Part shown: positions 2,270-10,762 of the stretch, piece by piece
How the letters are laid out: every line of letters starts with the position of its first letter
Numbering within the stretch: position 1 is the first letter of the stretch
Assembly: GCF_003018255.1 (NCBI RefSeq)
Contig: NZ_CP027440.1
Origin: Escherichia coli
GTDB taxonomy: Bacteria; Pseudomonadota; Gammaproteobacteria; Enterobacterales; Enterobacteriaceae
DNA length: 64,000 nt
Reading direction: 5' to 3' (one strand)
Program-made: the position numbers and the translations under genes
The notes under the pieces: generated by a model
Seen by the model: the letters and a program-made list of their open reading frames with translations, nothing else
Database searches by the model: none
Told to the model about the DNA's origin: nothing

Positions 2270-3118
2270 TCATGCTTCGTCTGGTTGCCAGCCTTCCGTA
2301 TACCAGATATGCAACAGCGCATAAGAACGCAAGGGCTTCCAGCGTTCGGCATAACGGCGGATTTGTGCCGGTGTCATTCCCGGAAATCGCTGTTTAATCA
2401 GATAATCATCCGGCAGGAAAACATCTTTCGCCTGCCAGCCGCGCAAGGCGAAATAATTCGCCGTCCAGCGCCCGATACCCGGAAAAGTTTGCAGCGTTTT
2501 CATCGCCTGCTCCACATCGCCCGGTATTGTCATTGGTAAGGTGCCCTCCAGCGCCGCATTTGCCAGATGAATCAGCGCCTCTGCCCGTTTCAACGGCATA
2601 CCTAACGCTTTTAATGCCTGCGGATCTGCTGCTGCCAGCCGCTGAGGCGTGGGGAAGCAGACATAATCCGGAAAATCATCCAGCCTTTCGCCATAAAGCT
2701 GTGCCACTCTGGCGGTCAATTTTGCCGCCATCGCCACGCTCACCAGCTGGCCTAAAATCGCCCGCACGCCCTGCTCAAAAGCATCAACACAACCGGGTAA
2801 ACGCAATCCGGGCCGTGCCGCGCCTAACTTGCCCAACGCACCGTTAACAATCTGCGGGTTACATTGCAGATCAAACAGGCGGCTCATTTTCGCCAGACAC
2901 TCTGCGGCAACGGGTTCTAAACCTGCACTTAAATTTATGTGCAGAGTATGGCTGGCTATATCCGGAATAGCAGTCACCACGCCGCGACATTCGCCCACCG
3001 CCAGACTACGGGCATAATAATCGTCAGCGACCGTTTCCACACCGTTCACCGCACGGGCGGCGAGAAATCCCAACATCCACGACCAGTCATACGGCGGCTG
3101 CCAGTTCAGGGTATACAT
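2270..3118 (-). CDS. alkA: 3-methyladenine DNA glycosylase II
   Basis: 282 aa ORF; translation recognised as AlkA (MYTLNWQPPYDWSWMLGFLAARAV...). Confidence 0.9.
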   Translation of the reverse strand: MYTLNWQPPYDWSWMLGFLAARAVNGVETVADDYYARSLAVGECRGVVTAIPDIASHTLHINLSAGLEPVAAECLAKMSRLFDLQCNPQIVNGALGKLGAARPGLRLPGCVDAFEQGVRAILGQLVSVAMAAKLTARVAQLYGERLDDFPDYVCFPTPQRLAAADPQALKALGMPLKRAEALIHLANAALEGTLPMTIPGDVEQAMKTLQTFPGIGRWTANYFALRGWQAKDVFLPDDYLIKQRFPGMTPAQIRRYAERWKPLRSYALLHIWYTEGWQPDEA

Positions 3119-3251
3119 CGCATCTCCTTGTTAATCCGCTTTCAGCATAAACGTTATTCAGACGCTACGCTTTGCTTTCATATTCCGGTTGTCGCGACGG
3201 CAACATTTCGCTAAAGTCACGCCCCTTCTTCACCGGCATGGGGATTATTTC

Positions 3252-4604
3252 GTGTTTATTGGTTTTGATTACGGTACAGCAAACTGTTCAGTGGCGGTCA
3301 TGCGCGACGGTAAGCCGCAATTACTGAAAATGGAAAACGACAGCACGCTGCTGCCTTCAATGCTTTGCGCGCCAACGCGTGAAGCGGTAAGCGAATGGCT
3401 GTACCGCCATCATGATGTTCCGGCAGACGACGATGAAACGCAGGCGCTGTTGCGTCGGGCGATTCGTTATAACCGCGAAGAAGATATCGATGTTACGGCG
3501 AAAAGCGTGCAGTTCGGTCTTTCCTCACTGGCACAGTACATTGATGATCCAGAAGAGGTGTGGTTTGTGAAATCACCAAAATCATTCCTCGGTGCCAGCG
3601 GCTTAAAACCGCAGCAGGTAGCGCTGTTTGAGGATCTGGTCTGCGCAATGATGTTGCACATTCGCCAGCAGGCGCAGGCGCAGCTGCCGGAGGCAATTAC
3701 TCAGGCGGTGATTGGTCGCCCGATCAACTTCCAGGGGCTGGGCGGCGATGAAGCAAACGCCCAGGCGCAAGGGATTCTGGAACGCGCGGCGAAGCGTGCC
3801 GGGTTTAAGGATGTGGTATTCCAGTACGAGCCGGTCGCGGCTGGGCTGGATTACGAAGCCACCTTGCAGGAAGAAAAACGGGTGCTGGTGGTGGATATCG
3901 GCGGTGGTACGACTGACTGTTCATTGCTGCTGATGGGGCCGCAGTGGCGTTCGCGTCTCGATCGTGAAGCCAGCCTGCTGGGTCACAGTGGTTGCCGTAT
4001 TGGCGGTAACGATCTGGATATCGCACTGGCGTTTAAAAACCTGATGCCGTTACTGGGCATGGGTGGCGAAACCGAAAAAGGCATCGCCCTGCCGATTCTG
4101 CCGTGGTGGAATGCGGTTGCCATCAACGACGTTCCTGCGCAAAGTGATTTCTACAGTAGTGCCAACGGTCGTCTGCTTAACGACCTGGTACGCGATGCCC
4201 GCGAACCGGAAAAAGTGGCCCTGTTACAGAAAGTCTGGCGTCAGCGTTTAAGCTATCGCCTGGTACGTAGCGCAGAAGAGAGCAAAATTGCGCTTTCAAG
4301 CGTAGCGGAAACCCGCGCCTCACTGCCGTTTATCAGCGATGAACTGGCTACGCTGATTAGCCAGCAAGGGCTGGAAAGCGCCCTCAGCCAGCCACTGGCG
4401 CGGATTCTGGAACAGGTGCAACTGGCGCTGGATAACGCCCAGGAAAAACCGGATGTTATCTATCTGACCGGCGGTAGCGCCCGTTCACCGCTGATTAAAA
4501 AAGCGCTGACAGAACAGTTGCCGGGCATTCCGATTGCAGGTGGCGATGACTTTGGCTCCGTCACCGCCGGGCTGGCACGCTGGGCGGAAGTGGTGTTTCG
4601 TTAA
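3252..4604 (+). CDS. yegD: Hsp70/actin-fold ATPase YegD
   Basis: ORF 3189..4604; likely GTG start at 3252 giving 450 aa (VFIGFDYGTANCSVAV...), DnaK-like N-terminal phosphate loop. Confidence 0.8.
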   Translation: MFIGFDYGTANCSVAVMRDGKPQLLKMENDSTLLPSMLCAPTREAVSEWLYRHHDVPADDDETQALLRRAIRYNREEDIDVTAKSVQFGLSSLAQYIDDPEEVWFVKSPKSFLGASGLKPQQVALFEDLVCAMMLHIRQQAQAQLPEAITQAVIGRPINFQGLGGDEANAQAQGILERAAKRAGFKDVVFQYEPVAAGLDYEATLQEEKRVLVVDIGGGTTDCSLLLMGPQWRSRLDREASLLGHSGCRIGGNDLDIALAFKNLMPLLGMGGETEKGIALPILPWWNAVAINDVPAQSDFYSSANGRLLNDLVRDAREPEKVALLQKVWRQRLSYRLVRSAEESKIALSSVAETRASLPFISDELATLISQQGLESALSQPLARILEQVQLALDNAQEKPDVIYLTGGSARSPLIKKALTEQLPGIPIAGGDDFGSVTAGLARWAEVVFR

Positions 4605-4616
4605 TTGAAAACTGGC

Positions 4617-6566
4617 TCAGCAACGGCTTAAATCAGCCTGCGCCTGAGCCAGTTTTTCTGCCGCCTGACGTAGCGGTTCCATCAACGGCATGGTCCGTGC
4701 TGGAGCATGAAGGCGGAATCGCTGCAACTCTGTCGCACCGACATTCAGCGCCGATTCCAGCCGATGTCGTTTGGCGGCCATTTTTGCCATTACCGCTTGT
4801 CTGTCTGCAGGCGTTACCGCTTCGTTCGGCCTGAACACAAAACGGCGTTCACAGCTCGCTTTCCAGTCGATAACCGCCTGGGTCAGATGATCACCAAAAC
4901 CTTTCACTTGCTTAACGCTCCGTCGGGTAACATCCGCTGCTGTTTCAATACCAAAGGACCGTAACGCCGCTTTACGCGCAGGGCCAACGCCGGGAATAGA
5001 GGCAACATCAATAAAAAATCCCTCCAGAAACTTCTGCTTCTGCCGTTCCCTTGCGGTGTCCTGAAGTGCTGCCAGATCGCGCTTTTCTTCTTCCGGTAAC
5101 CCAAGAATTTCGTCCTTCATTTTTTCGAGCATCGTCCGTTTGGCGATAAAACCTTCCAGCCCGCCCAACTGCTGGATCTGGCTGACTAAATGGTCATAGT
5201 CCATTTTCGCGCGATTAAACGCCTCACGGCGTTGCTGGATTTCTGCTTTGTACGCTTTGCTTGTCAGGCTGCCAATAATCCAGATAGCCGCCAGCACAGG
5301 AACCAAAATAATATAACGTGGTTCTGTCTGAAGGCCGCAAAGCAGCAGCGATAACGCTGACAGTGCGATCTCAATCAGAATGATGTATTCACGCCTTAAC
5401 AGGCCTAAAGGAAGCGGCCTGCCAGTCGGTTGGAAATGATCGGGTAATGGTAATTGCAATGCTGGCGGTGCTACTGACGCCATCACCATCGCCCAGACTT
5501 TCGCCAGCACAAAATCACCGCTGGTGGTAATGACCTCTTCGCCGAGATCAATAAAATAGATAACGCCTTGATTATCCAGAGCACACCACGGGCAGTCAGC
5601 CAAATGACCGGGATAAACATGCATTGCCGAAACGGTACATTTCTTTAACTGTTGGCGTAGTAAATCAAGTGCCGCTACCCACGCTTTTGCCGTCGGACGC
5701 CCGGTTGCCACGCCACTTTCCGTGAATGCCTGCTGAAACATGGCTTCAACATCGCCCGGTAACATCGACAGCGGAATAGATCGTGGCGGCGGTTTTAAAC
5801 CACGTCGCTGATTATCTGACGCGTAGGCATAACGGAAATGGGCAATATCCGTCTCCAGTGCATTACCCGCATCAGAGACAAGCGGTACACCGGAATAAGG
5901 ATGCCGCCCACCAAACAAGACGTGAAAAATCAGCAACGCAAGGCCAAAATTATCGTGATTCGCGGTGCGTTCAAAGCCGACAAATGATGGCAAGGTTTGT
6001 TGCTCTGGCGGCGTAAAATGCGACACGCCGACTTCGCATAAATGCAGCGTGCCATTGGCGTTAATCTGAAAGGAGTCGCTATCAATCAACACCACTTTGC
6101 TGTCGCGACCTACCATAAAGCTGTTCTGGTTTACGTCACCCACGACGTGCCCGTGCTCGTGAATCGTAGCAAAAGATGAAGCAATATTGCGCGCAACATA
6201 GAGTAGAAAATCCCACGCACAATGAGGGTAACGTTGACGACGATGTGCCGGGCTATAGATCATATGAATCGGTTCTTTACCAGAAACTTTTGGCATCATA
6301 AAACCGATTACTTTTCCGCCTCGTCCACCGTGAAGCGTTGCCTGCGGCCAGGCGACATAATTCAACAACTGCGCGTCAGCTGTCGCAGCCATAAAGGCAA
6401 GTTTGTCCTGTTTTAAGGCGGGTGGCGGCGTGTGATAAATCTTGGCGACGCTATCGACAAACTCCTCGATATCATAAACCGCGCCTTCACCGCCTTTGCC
6501 CAGTTCACAGCCTGGCGTAACGCACTCACCAGTAGCAGTATATAAAGTGGGTTTCATGGTAACCAC
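4617..6566 (-). CDS. yegI: Ser/Thr protein kinase-like membrane protein YegI
   Basis: 649 aa ORF; N-terminal kinase-like domain, central hydrophobic segments, C-terminal helix-hairpin-helix-like region; start overlaps stop of upstream yegK. Confidence 0.8.
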   Translation of the reverse strand: MVTMKPTLYTATGECVTPGCELGKGGEGAVYDIEEFVDSVAKIYHTPPPALKQDKLAFMAATADAQLLNYVAWPQATLHGGRGGKVIGFMMPKVSGKEPIHMIYSPAHRRQRYPHCAWDFLLYVARNIASSFATIHEHGHVVGDVNQNSFMVGRDSKVVLIDSDSFQINANGTLHLCEVGVSHFTPPEQQTLPSFVGFERTANHDNFGLALLIFHVLFGGRHPYSGVPLVSDAGNALETDIAHFRYAYASDNQRRGLKPPPRSIPLSMLPGDVEAMFQQAFTESGVATGRPTAKAWVAALDLLRQQLKKCTVSAMHVYPGHLADCPWCALDNQGVIYFIDLGEEVITTSGDFVLAKVWAMVMASVAPPALQLPLPDHFQPTGRPLPLGLLRREYIILIEIALSALSLLLCGLQTEPRYIILVPVLAAIWIIGSLTSKAYKAEIQQRREAFNRAKMDYDHLVSQIQQLGGLEGFIAKRTMLEKMKDEILGLPEEEKRDLAALQDTARERQKQKFLEGFFIDVASIPGVGPARKAALRSFGIETAADVTRRSVKQVKGFGDHLTQAVIDWKASCERRFVFRPNEAVTPADRQAVMAKMAAKRHRLESALNVGATELQRFRLHAPARTMPLMEPLRQAAEKLAQAQADLSRC

Positions 6567-7315
6567 AGCGCCAGTGCCAACGTTTTATCATCATCGGTAC
6601 GCTCGTTTACCGCCGGGCCGGACAAAAACTGCTTTAACAATTCAGGTAATAAATCGAGTTGTTCCTGCGTTGCTGACGCCAGCCCATTGAAAAACGGGGT
6701 AAAGAAAGGCACATGCGGAGAATTATCCAGCATATTTAACGCCAGCCGCTGGATACCATCCGTAAATGCTGCAACTTTGTGCGCACGCTCAGTGCTGGTG
6801 AAAGTTTCCAGTCTGGAAACGGCATCTTCATCGGTAATGAAGTGCGTCATATTGGTATATTCACCCACCATCGGCGTGAGCGGCAGTTGCAAACCGTGCC
6901 CCAAATCTACCACCACGCCGCCATCGCCAATCTGCATAATCAAGGTGCCATTAGCTGATGAAATCAATCCCAAAAACGTGCAGGCAAAATCGCGAACCGC
7001 TAATTCTTTGGCTTCCGCCTCGGCAAAAAGTCGCTGACGAATGGTCAGCACAATGTCCGTTGCGAGAACATCATTAAGCCCCAATTCCCCGCCCTGCACT
7101 TTTTGCGACATATAAGCCATCGCTTCATTGACGGCGAGCATCGCACCTTCGCCTCCCTGCGAGGCGCTACCTGCGCCATCAGCGACAAATACCGACAATA
7201 ATGGCTGCTGGTCATTTAACCAGGCAACCTGCATCTGGCAGGCATCCTGGCAAGGCAAGTCCGCGCTGATGTGCGACGTTCCAACGGTTGATGCATAGAC
7301 CAGACGCCAGCTCAC
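6554..7315 (-). CDS. yegK: PP2C-family Ser/Thr protein phosphatase YegK (PphC)
   Basis: 253 aa ORF with PP2C-like metal-binding motifs (VADGAGS, FTDGI); overlaps yegL stop by 4 nt. Confidence 0.75.
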
Positions 7316-7971
7316 ACTGACGTCCAGCCTTTTGGCGCTTCCAGCACAACTTCCGTTCCCGGCGTGGAGCGGGAAACCGAACGCAGCGAACTGGATAACC
7401 AGCTAAATAGTTCGCGGAATTGTAATCCTTGAAGAGGCAAAGGCTGACGAACGCTGATTTGGGCCAGCGTCTTCATATCCGCCCCCTGAACACCGATGGA
7501 AAAGAAGGCAAACTTCTTATCTTCTTCCCCCTGAAACACCTTGTTGGCAGCAGCCTGCCACTCATCGGTTGGTGCGCCATCGGTAATCAGGAAAATCCAC
7601 GGACGATAATAGGAAATACCATTGGCGCGATACTCACGTTTGCGCTCCTCAACCATATCCAGGGCTTTGGTAATGGCGGCCCCCATTGGTGTATCGCCCT
7701 GGGCAAACAGGATGGGCGGGAAAAAATTAGCGGCGCTGGTAAATGGTTGTTCCACATGCACCGGGCCGAACGTCACAATGCCGAGTTCCACTCTTTTTAA
7801 GGCCAGCGGATCGGCAAGCAGCTCATCGCGAAAGGTAACCAATCCGGCGTTAAGTTCATTAATAGGTCTACCGTTCATAGAACCAGAAACATCCAACAGC
7901 AAAATGCAGGGGCAACGTGGTTCCGGGTTACTGGCAAAATCGCTGGTGGCAAACGTGATTTGTTCGCTCAT
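7312..7971 (-). CDS. yegL: von Willebrand factor A domain protein YegL
   Basis: 219 aa ORF with MIDAS motif DVSGSM and downstream TDG. Confidence 0.8.
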
Positions 7972-8152
7972 AAGAAATCCTTTCTTAGAGAATTATTGAG
8001 GCCCGGTATCATACCGACTGCAACAATGAAATAAGAGCAAACGAAGAAACTTTCAGAATTAGGCCCGGCGGCGCAGAAAATTTTGCTATTCGCCTCGCAA
8101 GAACGGAGAGCCGTCGATTGACACTAAGGGCGGAGTGACATAATTTCAGGAG

Positions 8153-8300
8153 TGAGGGTTAGGGAGAGGTTTCCCCCTCCCCCTGGTGTTCTTAGTAAGC
8201 CTGGAAGCTAATCACTAAGAGTATCACCAGTATGATGACGTGCTTCATCATAACCCTTTCCTTATTAAAAGCCCTCTTCTCCGGGAGAGGGTTTCCCGTT
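8153..8300 (+). ncRNA. sibA: Sib antisense RNA antitoxin, copy 1 (boundaries approximate)
   Basis: Plus-strand -35 ttgaca 8118-8123, 17 bp spacer, -10 taattt 8141-8146; transcript fully covers ibs ORF; hairpin plus T tract near 8268-8303. Confidence 0.55.
8192..8251 (-). CDS. ibsA: Ibs type I toxin, 19 aa hydrophobic peptide (MMKHVIILVILLVISFQAY)
   Basis: Reverse complement of 8192..8251 reads ATGATGAAGCACGTCATCATACTGGTGATACTCTTAGTGATTAGCTTCCAGGCTTACTAA; SD-like ggaaaggg upstream. Confidence 0.8.
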   Translation of the reverse strand: MMKHVIILVILLVISFQAY

Positions 8301-8487
8301 TCAGCGTCCCGCTGAAATCGTCGGCTTACCTCCTTTCGCCCTGAATGCAGTCTATCGCTAACGCGTGAACAAAATAGTTTCCTCTGTGATTATTGCGTAA
8401 CGACTCGCAAAGAATATTTGCTGGCAGGATCGCAGACTACAAAGCCTGCGGATTGACAATCTTATCGTGAAGGCATAATTTCAGGAG

Positions 8488-8630
8488 TGAGGGTAGAGCG
8501 GGGTTTCCCCCGCCCTGGTAGTCTTAGTAAGCTGGCCAGCTAATAACTAAGAGCACCACGATGATGAGTAGCTTCATCATGACCCTTTCCTTATTTAAGG
8601 CCCCTTCCTCGGGAGGGGCTTTCCCGTTTC
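8488..8630 (+). ncRNA. sibB: Sib antisense RNA antitoxin, copy 2 (approximate)
   Basis: ttgaca 8453-8458, 17 bp spacer, taattt 8476-8481; hairpin ggccccttcctcgggaggggct followed by ttcccgtttc. Confidence 0.55.
8524..8580 (-). CDS. ibsB: Ibs type I toxin, 18 aa (MMKLLIIVVLLVISWPAY)
   Basis: Reverse complement of 8524..8580 gives ATGATGAAGCTACTCATCATCGTGGTGCTCTTAGTTATTAGCTGGCCAGCTTACTAA. Confidence 0.8.
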   Translation of the reverse strand: MMKLLIIVVLLVISWPAY

Positions 8631-8815
8631 AGCGTCCCGCTGAAATCGGCGGCCTACCTCCTTTCGCCATGCAAGCAGTCTATCGCTAACTTGCAGATAA
8701 AATAGTTTCACATGTGATTATTGCGTAACGTCTCGCAAAGAATATTTGCTGGCAGGATCGCAGACTACAAAGCCTGCGGATTGACAATCTAATTGTGAAG
8801 GCATACTTTCAGGAG

Positions 8816-8957
8816 TGAGGGTAGAGCGGGGTTTCCCCCGCCCTGGTAGTCTTAGTAAGCCGGGAAGCTTATGACTAAGAGCACCACGATGATGATCCAC
8901 TTCATCATGACCCTTTCCTTATTTAAGGCCCCTTCCTCGGGAGGGGCTTTCCCGTTT
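8816..8957 (+). ncRNA. Sib-family antisense RNA, copy 3 (approximate)
   Basis: ttgaca 8781-8786, 17 bp spacer, -10-like tacttt 8804-8809; terminator hairpin ending near 8957. Confidence 0.5.
8852..8908 (-). CDS. Ibs-family type I toxin, 18 aa (MMKWIIIVVLLVISFPAY)
   Basis: Reverse complement of 8852..8908 gives ATGATGAAGTGGATCATCATCGTGGTGCTCTTAGTCATAAGCTTCCCGGCTTACTAA. Confidence 0.75.
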   Translation of the reverse strand: MMKWIIIVVLLVISFPAY

Positions 8958-9143
8958 CAGCGTCCCGCTGAAATCATCGGCTTACCTCCTTTCGCCCTGA
9001 ATGCAGTCTATCGCTGACTTGCGGATAAAATAGTTTCACATGTGATTATTGCGTGACGTCTCGCAAAGAATATTTGCTGGCAGGATCGCAGACTGCAAAG
9101 CCTGCGGATTGACAATCGGACCGTGAAGGCATACTTTCAGGAG

Positions 9144-9287
9144 TGAGGGTAGAGCGGGGTTTCCCCCGCCCTGGTAGTCTTAGTAAGCTGGGTAGCTAAC
9201 GACTAAGAGCACCACGATGATGAGTATCTTCATCATGACCCTTTCCTTATTTAAGGCCCCTTCCTCGGGAGGGGCTTGCCCGTTTCA
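9144..9287 (+). ncRNA. Sib-family antisense RNA, copy 4 (approximate)
   Basis: ttgaca 9109-9114, 17 bp spacer, tacttt 9132-9137; terminator hairpin ending near 9286. Confidence 0.5.
9180..9236 (-). CDS. Ibs-family type I toxin, 18 aa (MMKILIIVVLLVVSYPAY)
   Basis: Reverse complement of 9180..9236 gives ATGATGAAGATACTCATCATCGTGGTGCTCTTAGTCGTTAGCTACCCAGCTTACTAA. Confidence 0.75.
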   Translation of the reverse strand: MMKILIIVVLLVVSYPAY

Positions 9288-9444
9288 GCGTCCCGCTGAA
9301 ATCGTCGGCCTACCTCCTTTTGCCCTGAATGCAGTCTATCGCTAACGCGTAGATAAAATAGTTTCCTGTGTTATTACTGGATGGGTGCTCGCAAATGTGC
9401 CCGCCATTCAGACGATTCCCGATAGTGTTTCATAATTCCTCCAT

Positions 9445-9462
9445 TTTTCTCCCTGATTGGCT
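9445..9462 (+). promoter_or_regulatory. BaeR response-regulator binding box in mdtA promoter
   Basis: tttttctccctgattggc resembles the BaeR box consensus as recalled (TTTTTCTCCATDATTGGC); about 55 bp upstream of mdtA start. Confidence 0.5.
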
Positions 9463-9514
9463 GGCTACACTAGTATCATTCCGCGAATCGTTTCAGGAAG
9501 AGAAACTCTTAACG

Positions 9515-10762
9515 ATGAAAAGCAGTTATAAATCCCGTTGGGTAATGGTAATCGTGGTGGTTATCGCCGCCATCGCCGCATTCTGGTTCTGGCAAGGCCG
9601 CAATGACTCCCGGAGTGCAGCGCCAGGGGCGACGAAACAAGCGCAGCAATCGCCAGCGGGTGGTCGCCGTGGTATGCGTTCCGGCCCATTAGCCCCGGTT
9701 CAGGCGGCGACCGCCGTAGAACAGGCAGTTCCGCGTTACCTCACCGGGCTTGGCACCATTACCGCCGCTAATACTGTTACGGTGCGCAGCCGCGTGGACG
9801 GTCAACTGATGGCGTTGCATTTCCAGGAAGGCCAGCAGGTCAAAGCAGGCGATTTACTGGCAGAAATTGACCCCAGCCAGTTCAAAGTTGCATTAGCACA
9901 AGCCCAGGGCCAACTGGCAAAAGATAAAGCCACGCTTGCCAACGCCCGCCGTGACCTGGCGCGTTATCAACAACTGGTAAAAACCAATCTCGTATCTCGT
10001 CAGGAGCTGGATGCCCAACAGGCGCTGGTCAGTGAAACCGAAGGCACCATTAAGGCTGATGAAGCAAGCGTCGCCAGCGCGCAGCTGCAACTCGACTGGA
10101 GCCGCATCACCGCACCAGTCGATGGTCGCGTTGGTCTCAAGCAGGTTGATGTTGGTAACCAAATCTCCAGTGGTGATACCACCGGGATTGTGGTGATCAC
10201 CCAGACGCATCCTATCGATTTGCTCTTTACCCTGCCGGAAAGCGATATCGCTACCGTAGTGCAGGCGCAAAAAGCCGGAAAACCGCTGGTTGTTGAAGCC
10301 TGGGATCGCACCAATTCAAAGAAATTAAGTGAAGGCACGCTGTTAAGTCTCGATAACCAAATCGATGCCACTACCGGTACGATTAAAGTGAAAGCACGCT
10401 TCAATAATCAGGATGATGCGCTGTTTCCCAATCAGTTTGTTAACGCGCGCATGTTAGTCGACACAGAGCAAAACGCTGTGGTGATCCCAACAGCCGCCCT
10501 GCAAATGGGCAATGAAGGCCATTTTGTCTGGGTGCTGAATAGCGAAAACAAGGTCAGCAAACATCTGGTGACGCCGGGCATTCAGGACAGTCAGAAAGTG
10601 GTGATCCGCGCAGGTATTTCTGCGGGCGACCGCGTAGTGACAGACGGCATTGATCGCCTGACCGAAGGGGCGAAAGTGGAAGTAGTGGAAGCCCAGAGCG
10701 CCACCACTCCGGAAGAGAAAGCCACCAGCCGCGAATACGCGAAAAAAGGAGCACGCTCCTGA
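9515..10762 (+). CDS. mdtA: Multidrug efflux RND membrane fusion protein MdtA
   Basis: ORF 9368..10762; start placed at ATG 9515 ([16 protein letters not shown]..., 415 aa) rather than the longest ORF; periplasmic adaptor coiled-coil/lipoyl features. Confidence 0.9.

Follow-up and report, generated by a model that had tools for sequence, protein, structure and literature searches.

The region described here belongs to a 64,000-nucleotide stretch of Escherichia coli DNA (the window), and its subject is a group of three consecutive minus-strand genes between positions 4617 and 7971. The locus was identified as the known E. coli operon yegL-pphC-yegI, in which pphC is also called yegK. The 6-kb stretch around the three genes (window 4000-10000) matched the E. 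coli 2014C-3338 chromosome with 100% identity, and the RefSeq record of that strain labels them as 'protein kinase YegI', 'protein-serine/threonine phosphatase PphC' and, for yegL, 'vWA domain-containing protein', and also annotates yegD, four ibs toxin genes and mdtA/mdtB. A sequence-only reading of the window had proposed three consecutive genes for a vWA protein with a metal ion-dependent adhesion site (MIDAS), a PP2C phosphatase and a kinase-like membrane protein, and this assignment was confirmed by the open reading frames (ORFs), RefSeq, Pfam and the predicted folds. The features of the operon were located as follows (aa, amino acids).

7972..7990, minus strand: ribosome-binding region of yegL, AAGGA 7 nt ahead of the ATG, read from the sequence
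7312..7971, minus strand: yegL, first gene of the operon, 219-aa cytoplasmic vWA protein (ORF, RefSeq name)
7879..7893, minus strand: MIDAS DxSxS motif of YegL (DVSGS, codons 27-31) with invariant D27, S29 and S31
6554..7315, minus strand: pphC (yegK), 253-aa PP2C-type Ser/Thr phosphatase (ORF, RefSeq name)
4617..6557, minus strand: yegI, 646-aa inner-membrane Hanks-type Ser/Thr kinase (ORF, RefSeq name)
5658..6557, minus strand: kinase domain of YegI, aa 1-300 (Foldseek, invariant residues)
5583..5639, minus strand: putative zinc knuckle of YegI, aa 307-325, C307-x5-H313-x8-C322-P-W-C325 (alignment)
5259..5387, minus strand: transmembrane hairpin of YegI, aa ~391-433 (hydropathy, AlphaFold2 helices, published topology)
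4842..5240, minus strand: coiled coil of YegI, aa ~440-512, then two putative helix-hairpin-helix (HhH) motifs, aa ~515-572 (Pfam/alignment)
4623..4811, minus strand: long C-terminal helices of YegI, aa 583-645 (AlphaFold2 helices 583-605 and 607-645)

The three genes were translationally coupled through shared stop and start codons. The stop codon of yegL and the GTG start of pphC share GTGA (context gtGTGAgct), and the stop codon of pphC and the ATG start of yegI at 6557 share ATGA, each giving an overlap of 4 nt. The first overlap had been read correctly from the sequence alone; the second had been given as 13 nt, a value obtained only with the GTG at 6566, which starts the longest yegI ORF (4617-6566, 649 aa). 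The ATG at 6557, giving 646 aa, was agreed by RefSeq, by published work and by the N-terminal alignment of 32 homologues. The neighbouring gene yegD (plus strand, stop TAA 4602-4604) had been described as divergent from the triad; it proved to be convergent with yegI (minus strand, stop 4617-4619), with 12 nt between the two stops. No yegJ was present between pphC and yegI, which is the REL606/B-type layout. In the promoter and terminator scan of the locus the counts equalled the shuffled expectation, and no yegL promoter rose above chance. The GC content of the three genes (51.5-52.3%) was so close to that of the whole window (50.9%) that composition was uninformative, and foreign base composition was rejected as a clue. 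The three ORFs were not chance ones, as they were long, conserved and under purifying selection.

Since the enzymology of yegI and pphC has been published, the operon and its activities were already known, and the sequence-only reading was made unaware of this characterization. The published E. coli YegI, PphC and YegL are the products of the same genes, and the window keeps K39, D141 and D159-S-D-S162 of the published kinase. The contribution of the present work lies in the cross-phylum cassette, the CHCC motif, the HhH tail, the neighbourhoods and the selection analysis; the two Rajagopalan papers (10.1101/303594, 10.1101/819920) mention neither HhH, the CHCC motif, a cross-phylum cassette nor TerY-P.

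YegI has been reported as an active kinase which prefers Mn and is sensitive to staurosporine (bioRxiv 10.1101/819920; Rajagopalan & Dworkin, FEBS Lett 2020). An AlphaFold2 model of YegI was built on a 32-sequence alignment (mean predicted confidence, pLDDT, 88.6), and a bilobal protein-kinase fold was found in it. The best Foldseek matches of the kinase domain were PknB and PknA of Mycobacterium tuberculosis (E ~1e-7, TM-score to the target 0.66-0.74); for these and many eukaryotic kinases together, the probability was 1.00 and the TM-score to the target 0.6-0.74 over ~300 columns. The Pfam Pkinase profile gave no match for E. coli YegI at E <= 0.1 and matched 16 of the 32 family members, the best at 1.5e-7. 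The kinase motifs comprised a GKGGEG P-loop, VAK39, the catalytic loop GD141VNQNS, D159-S-D-S162 and TPPE182-185, among which G22-G23, K39, D141, D159 and TPPE182-185 were invariant in the homologues. The inspection of catalytic motifs suggested by the sequence-only reading thus had a divided outcome: K39, D141 and D159 were kept, HRD was replaced by VGD and DFG by DSD, and the Asn of motif VI was replaced by Ser. Three of the ten residues regarded as 'invariant' in such kinases are missing from YegI, and the motif III Glu, the motif VI Asn and the motif XI Arg are replaced (10.1101/819920). Despite these replacements the kinase was active in published assays, so the outcome that had been named as counting against a phospho-signalling triad, a YegI lacking essential catalytic residues and activity, was not what was found. 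The K39D and D141N mutants are inactive, and changing DSD to DFG abolishes activity; autophosphorylation occurs on S153, S160, S162, S602 and S644 with second-order kinetics, S162 in the DSDS loop being essential and S602 and S644, on the C-terminal helices, non-essential (10.1101/819920).

Directly after the kinase domain, the residues C307, H313, C322 and C325 were invariant in 32 sequences and at least 95% conserved in 42 aligned ones, and a short beta hairpin (strands 304-306 and 314-316) was predicted around them in the AlphaFold2 model. This CHCC motif is a putative zinc knuckle. A low-confidence linker in the same model leads from the hairpin to the hydrophobic helices, where hydropathy peaked at windows starting at 389-393 and 413-417 and helices were modelled at 389-408 and from 413 onward. 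PhoA-LacZ fusions have shown two passes of YegI through the inner membrane and a cytoplasmic location of both termini (10.1101/819920). The periplasmic loop is only ~5 residues long; the hairpin is a membrane anchor, and YegI has no periplasmic sensor domain. Beyond the coiled coil, two putative GhG-type HhH motifs (IPGVGPARKAALRSFGIETAADV and VKGFGDHLTQAVIDW) were visible, in a region where G536, I537, A540 and W565 were conserved. The Pfam profile HHH_5 was matched in 9 of the 32 family members, and the source annotations call some YegI relatives 'helix-hairpin-helix domain-containing protein'. At E <= 1e-10, ~1,270 representative sequences were related to the C-terminal module, and the whole coiled-coil, HhH and helical tail appears to be a cytoplasmic juxtamembrane module that can be reused.

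PphC was matched by Pfam PP2C_2 at 3.7e-52 (177 bits; cut-off, 24 bits). The metal ligands, for which an alignment had been suggested in the sequence-only reading, were found as expected: D24, D46-G47, D186-G187 and D241-243 were at least 95% conserved in 47 homologues, so that PphC has both the domain and the metal-binding aspartates of the PP2C family. It has been characterized as an Mn-dependent Ser/Thr phosphatase with 6/8 canonical PP2C residues (bioRxiv 10.1101/303594), and it dephosphorylates phospho-YegI (10.1101/303594; Rajagopalan, Nagle & Dworkin, J Bacteriol 2018).

YegL was the most conserved of the three proteins, 56-85% identical across phyla with 83 of its 219 positions at least 95% conserved. 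Its assignment as a vWA/MIDAS protein was supported by Pfam VWA (6.9e-10), by the fold and by the motif: the MIDAS was complete (D27-x-S29-x-S31, T94 and D131) and invariant in 36-45 homologues, and an AlphaFold2 model (pLDDT 87.3) matched vWF-A3, integrin I domains, the anthrax receptor vWA and the ArnAB vWA in Foldseek. The conserved parts included the patch FAxNPEPR near the N-terminus and, at the C-terminal end, a Ser-rich helix and tail with S193, S195, S200 and S202. This constraint suggests either a universally conserved partner of YegL or a C-terminal helix that would serve as the target of the kinase. By sequence, no close solved structures of the triad proteins were found. Relatives of YegL are labelled 'uncharacterized protein YegL' by JGI, and in its COG entry the vWA domain is called 'TerY type'.

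The distribution of the triad was surveyed by scanning 100,044 species, each through a single genome, for degenerate peptides, and gene order was read by tblastn. In total, 43 loci were detected, in Escherichia, Klebsiella, other Beta- and Gammaproteobacteria, Actinobacteria, Acidobacteria, Planctomycetes, Cyanobacteria, Myxococcota and Lentisphaerae. YegL, PphC and YegI homologues stood side by side in an unchanged order in nearly every locus whose sequence was long enough, and the gene sizes were near-constant across the annotated loci (~219/253/646 aa). Relatives of YegI were also found on 82 plasmid records, including the Pseudomonas megaplasmid pQBR103 and plasmids of Agrobacterium and Rhizobium. 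Carriage by phages was rejected, since the triad was essentially absent from phage genomes and only three weak vWA matches in unannotated faecal contigs were obtained. No conserved fourth gene accompanied the triad: 137 flank ORFs from 16 loci fell into 137 Pfam families, and 145 ORFs from 13 further loci into 107. A YegD homologue lay near the triad only in Escherichia (tblastn of the 43 loci), so that yegD, a convergent gene, was rejected as a fourth component and the link to yegD hinted at in the sequence-only reading fell away. The same reading had called the triad self-contained, and this was upheld, as the three genes stayed together and their flanks differed. The co-occurrence of yegL, pphC and yegI is obligate, and the triad is a fixed, self-sufficient cassette which has moved among at least 8 bacterial phyla and plasmids.

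Two other genes were seen beside some of these loci. A gene of the staphylococcal nuclease family (SNase) with a signal-peptide-like N-terminus stood directly upstream of the vWA gene at L002 7932-8474 and in L024, L053, L011 and L014; it was confined to a Piscinibacter/Burkholderiales subgroup, with no counterpart seen in E. coli or the other clades. A basic 69-aa ORF (MKFGMRKPSLKK...), with no Pfam match, occurred at L002 7719-7928 and in L024, L052, L050, L053, L035, L045 and L048. It adjoined triads of Betaproteobacteria, Acidobacteria and Planctomycetes at 72-100% identity, was absent from the E. coli locus, and was seen as well, apart from triads, on Variovorax, Citrobacter, Clostridium and Lactococcus plasmids. 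Both were rejected as a conserved extra gene, the one being confined to a clade and the other lying also far from triads. An HhH protein near the triad on pQBR103 was unrelated to YegI.

The neighbourhoods were evaluated in 10 non-Escherichia loci with gene-level annotation, in which defence genes were counted within 10 kb, and in a bulk survey of the flanks of 29 loci by PADLOC and Pfam. Defence genes were present in five of the 10 annotated contexts. The triad of Piscinibacter was neighboured by NYN, an SLFN-type helicase, MazG-like, ScoMcrA_N, SNase, BrxR and JetB; that of Klebsiella by BrnA, GmrSD, SymE and a type I restriction-modification (RM) system; that of Chromobacterium by AbiH, a KAP NTPase and a Tn7-like transposon; that of a metagenomic contig by type I RM and Mrr-like genes; and that of Massilia by a Cap4 nuclease and HEPN-RES. 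In the bulk flanks, PADLOC detected Wadjet at two loci, together with type I RM, MADS, PD-Lambda-1 and candidate systems, and Pfam added PIN, HNH, caspase and CHAT domains in the second flank batch (13 loci). Neither the annotated neighbours nor the 25 flank families met most often included ter genes.

Within E. coli, triad DNA was present in 5402 of 5426 complete genomes (99.6%) at a single chromosomal site, and all three ORFs were intact in the five genomes examined. The triad DNA of the window was 91-97% identical to the alleles of BL21 and K-12. The ratio of nonsynonymous to synonymous divergence (dN/dS) was determined by the pairwise Nei-Gojobori method against eight Escherichia alleles, one unreliable yegI comparison and the dgcE row being left out. 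It was 0.01-0.06 for yegL, 0.09-0.15 for pphC and 0.12-0.21 for yegI, and 0.01-0.08 for yegD, mdtA and mdtB. Thus yegL, pphC and yegI are kept by purifying selection in Escherichia, and positive or diversifying selection on the triad was rejected. Synonymous divergence (dS) was raised in pphC alone, at 0.29-0.83 compared with 0.08-0.38 in yegL, yegI, yegD and mdtA; by lineage it was 0.31 (BL21), 0.29 (NT1F10) and 0.83 (E69), with dN/dS still ~0.12. This excess suggests old allelic classes or local recombination confined to pphC, as judged from the alleles compared. The published identity of 92% between the PphC proteins of K-12 and B (10.1101/303594) agrees with such pphC-only divergence.

An insertion of ~725 bp carrying yegJ lay between pphC and yegI in 1899-1934 of the 5426 complete E. 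coli genomes (~35%). It was not limited to laboratory strains of the K-12 type, and in some genomes it was further broken by IS1. It was mapped at L055 7948-8672 (E. coli J53) and is absent from the window at ~6554-6557.

Among known systems the closest comparison was TerY-P. The TerY-P triad (Anantharaman, Iyer & Aravind 2012) comprises a TerY-like vWA protein, a PP2C and a Ser/Thr kinase that bears a zinc ribbon at its C-terminus, and was first hypothesised to be a metal-sensing, phosphorylation-dependent switch linked to tellurite resistance. A variant whose kinase ends in an OB fold is a validated stand-alone anti-phage system against T7-like phages (Gao et al. 2020), and TerY-P modules also form part of type II/III-A CoCoNuT systems, which are type IV restriction systems, and of a genomic island of Helicobacter. 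Like TerY-P, yegL-pphC-yegI combines a MIDAS vWA protein, a PP2C and a kinase with an extra C-terminal domain, putatively of the nucleic-acid-binding type, in one operon; the genes overlap, the order is vWA-PP2C-kinase and is kept across loci, and the cassette often lies near restriction or nuclease genes. Unlike the TerY-P kinases with their zinc ribbon (CoCoNuT type) or OB fold (Gao type), YegI bears a short CHCC knuckle followed by a transmembrane hairpin, a coiled coil and two putative HhH motifs, different domains in an analogous place, and neither Pfam TerY_C nor an OB fold was matched in any of the 32 YegI-family kinases. We describe the triad as working in the manner of TerY-P and as probably a separate branch, rather than as a demonstrated member.

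The other relatives of the arrangement were more distant in build. YegI resembles PknB-PstP of M. tuberculosis and PrkC-PrpC of Bacillus subtilis in its kinase fold, in autophosphorylation of the activation loop, in the cognate PP2C within the operon and in membrane anchoring. It differs from them in having no extracellular PASTA or other sensor beyond its short periplasmic loop, in its VGD and DSD motifs and lack of a Pfam Pkinase match, and in its obligatory vWA partner gene. The association of vWA proteins with Hanks-type kinases and a phosphatase recalls ArnA/ArnB of Sulfolobus and DRA0331-0334 of Deinococcus (vWA, kinase, FHA, PP2C), and the ArnAB vWA chain (PDB 8s05) was one of those that YegL matched by sequence and by fold. 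ArnB is itself phosphorylated. Both of these systems contain FHA phospho-readers, in contrast to the cassette, which has no FHA and differs in gene order and kinase architecture.

Taken together, the comparative results point to a conflict or DNA-stress module rather than to local regulation of yegD or mdt. The pointers are a rigid cassette shared across phyla and plasmids, neighbours of the restriction, Wadjet, Abi and toxin kinds, the HhH tail and the constrained vWA partner. We therefore read the known operon as a TerY-P-like branch whose likeliest role is that of a silent conflict or DNA-stress module directed at phages or mobile elements, rather than regulation of yegD or mdt, and give this a probability of roughly 0.55. 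The triad would be silenced, since the condition for its expression has not been found and a published promoter catalogue lists H-NS for the K-12 yegI/yegJ spacer. Robust expression of the triad genes was not found in several published studies, and faint stationary-phase expression has been reported (10.1101/819920). The link to DNA is drawn from the HhH motifs, from the C-terminal domains of TerY-P kinases and from the screen of Xia et al., in which overproduced YegL ('strong') and YegI (at least 5-fold) each raise endogenous DNA damage. As to mechanism, YegI may oligomerise, perhaps on DNA, through its cytoplasmic coiled-coil/(HhH)2 module; oligomerisation would switch the kinase on by trans-autophosphorylation, PphC would reset it by dephosphorylation, and YegL would be the phospho-regulated output or adaptor. 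A role of the tail on nucleic acid is proposed by parallel with the OB fold or zinc ribbon that TerY-P kinases carry at the same position, and YegL is proposed as the output because it is the MIDAS-vWA protein and is better conserved than the other two. The comparative results also make YegL, like the kinase, a main subject for study.

A more specific version was also considered, in which the triad is an unclassified, H-NS-silenced immune module of TerY-P-like type: the YegI tail would sense foreign or damaged DNA and drive an abortive or DNA-targeting output through YegL, with PphC as the off-switch. We regard this version as tentative and well short of probable. If true, the E. coli core genome would carry a defence module missed by current defence-finding profiles.

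Several results weigh against a conflict or DNA-stress module of TerY-P-like type. The triad is a fixed core locus outside the variable islands, with unremarkable GC. A defence-island habit of the cassette is suggestive, the count of five in 10 having no background frequency and the enrichment being unquantified; the other five contexts comprised two housekeeping regions, one with a transposase and housekeeping genes, and two regions of unannotated genes. The PADLOC profile for TerY matched YegL only partially (E 0.014) and reached E <= 0.01 in only five of 36 YegL homologues (best 0.0015), PphC had no match, and YegI gave only weak matches to the PD-T4-6 and MkoA kinases. The triad was accordingly not filed as a TerY-P member, and its classification as such by PADLOC was rejected. 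HHH_5 on YegI (518-554, E 2.9e-4) scored 21.7 bits, below the cut-off of 27. The tail (aa 440-646) was also found in kinase-free membrane proteins (P0270, P0352, P0311, P0290 and P0287), which continue into another transmembrane segment and then into periplasmic TPR, TonB_C, PG-binding or SH3_3 domains; it may therefore serve dimerisation or be a juxtamembrane module instead of sensing DNA. The damage to DNA is an effect of overproduction, and MdtA and MdtB score in the same screen (Xia et al.). The literature searched links yegI to no phage resistance, and no experiment connects the three genes with phages, plasmids or DNA. That they act in defence or in sensing DNA is inferred, and YegL would be a candidate substrate of YegI. 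The sequence-only reading had likewise offered a role as inference and named no substrates, and this holds, for the literature gives no substrate beyond YegI itself.

The strongest competitor is a housekeeping one, in which YegI and PphC, adapted to Escherichia, reversibly phosphorylate ordinary proteins in stationary phase or envelope stress with YegL as a scaffold; the pair might act together with the chaperone-like ATPase YegD and with the mdtABCD-baeSR efflux genes. The core status and fixed position of the triad in 99.6% of complete E. coli genomes, the purifying selection and the faint stationary-phase expression are all consistent with it. So are published observations that yegD is induced by yegJ overexpression, that yegI was recurrently mutated in the long-term evolution experiment, and that pphC, yegL and yegI are differentially expressed in strains of adherent-invasive E. 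coli (AIEC). It fits poorly with the surroundings, as outside Escherichia yegD and mdt never adjoin the triad, and yegD, convergent with yegI, is not co-transcribed with it. The cassette is scattered patchily over phyla and plasmids, in surroundings unrelated to one another, a pattern typical of accessory mobile modules, and YegI itself is the sole known substrate. We consider this explanation rather unlikely. A switch for metal or xenobiotic stress, in which the YegL MIDAS and the YegI CHCC motif would sense metal or tellurite-like stress and gate the balance of kinase and phosphatase, appears quite improbable. It would be in line with the early hypothesis for TerY-P mentioned above, with the invariance of the MIDAS and CHCC residues and with the Mn2+ preference of both YegI and PphC. 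It is opposed by the lack of ter genes in the neighbourhoods surveyed and of TerY_C in the 32 kinases, and in vWA and integrin I domains the MIDAS metal serves protein-ligand binding and is normally not itself sensed.

The lowest weight was given to the idea that the genes, gained horizontally at the base of Escherichia, are now a silenced and unused leftover, which we judge very improbable. The failure of several studies to find robust expression, the H-NS entry at the locus, the splitting of the operon by yegJ in ~35% of genomes, some with IS1, and the loss-type mutations implied in the long-term evolution experiment could all be read in this way. However, the ORFs are intact and the DNA nearly universal in the genomes cited above, and the enzymes are active in vitro. 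Above all, the dN/dS values are incompatible with neutral decay, and purifying selection on all three genes excludes a decaying remnant, so that this explanation is largely refuted.

Some observations concerned the genes around the operon. Between yegL and mdtA, SIB_RNA antitoxin genes (Rfam RF00113, 137-150 bits) were found in four tandem copies on the plus strand at window 8118-9251, opposite four annotated ORFs of Ibs type I toxins on the minus strand. The number of SIB/Ibs copies at this site varied among strains, with two in J53 (K-12-like) and MS8324, three in NT1F10 and 2014C-3050, and four in BL21 and the window. The alkA gene (window 2270-3118, minus strand) was an intact ORF of 282 aa, and the matching RefSeq record carries a frameshifted pseudogene (850 bp). 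For yegD (window 3189-4604, plus strand), the longest ORF started from TTG 3189 and encoded 471 aa; a 450-aa YegD starting at 3252 was backed by RefSeq and by the NCBIfam equivalog PRK11678 (808 bits, residues 22-471).

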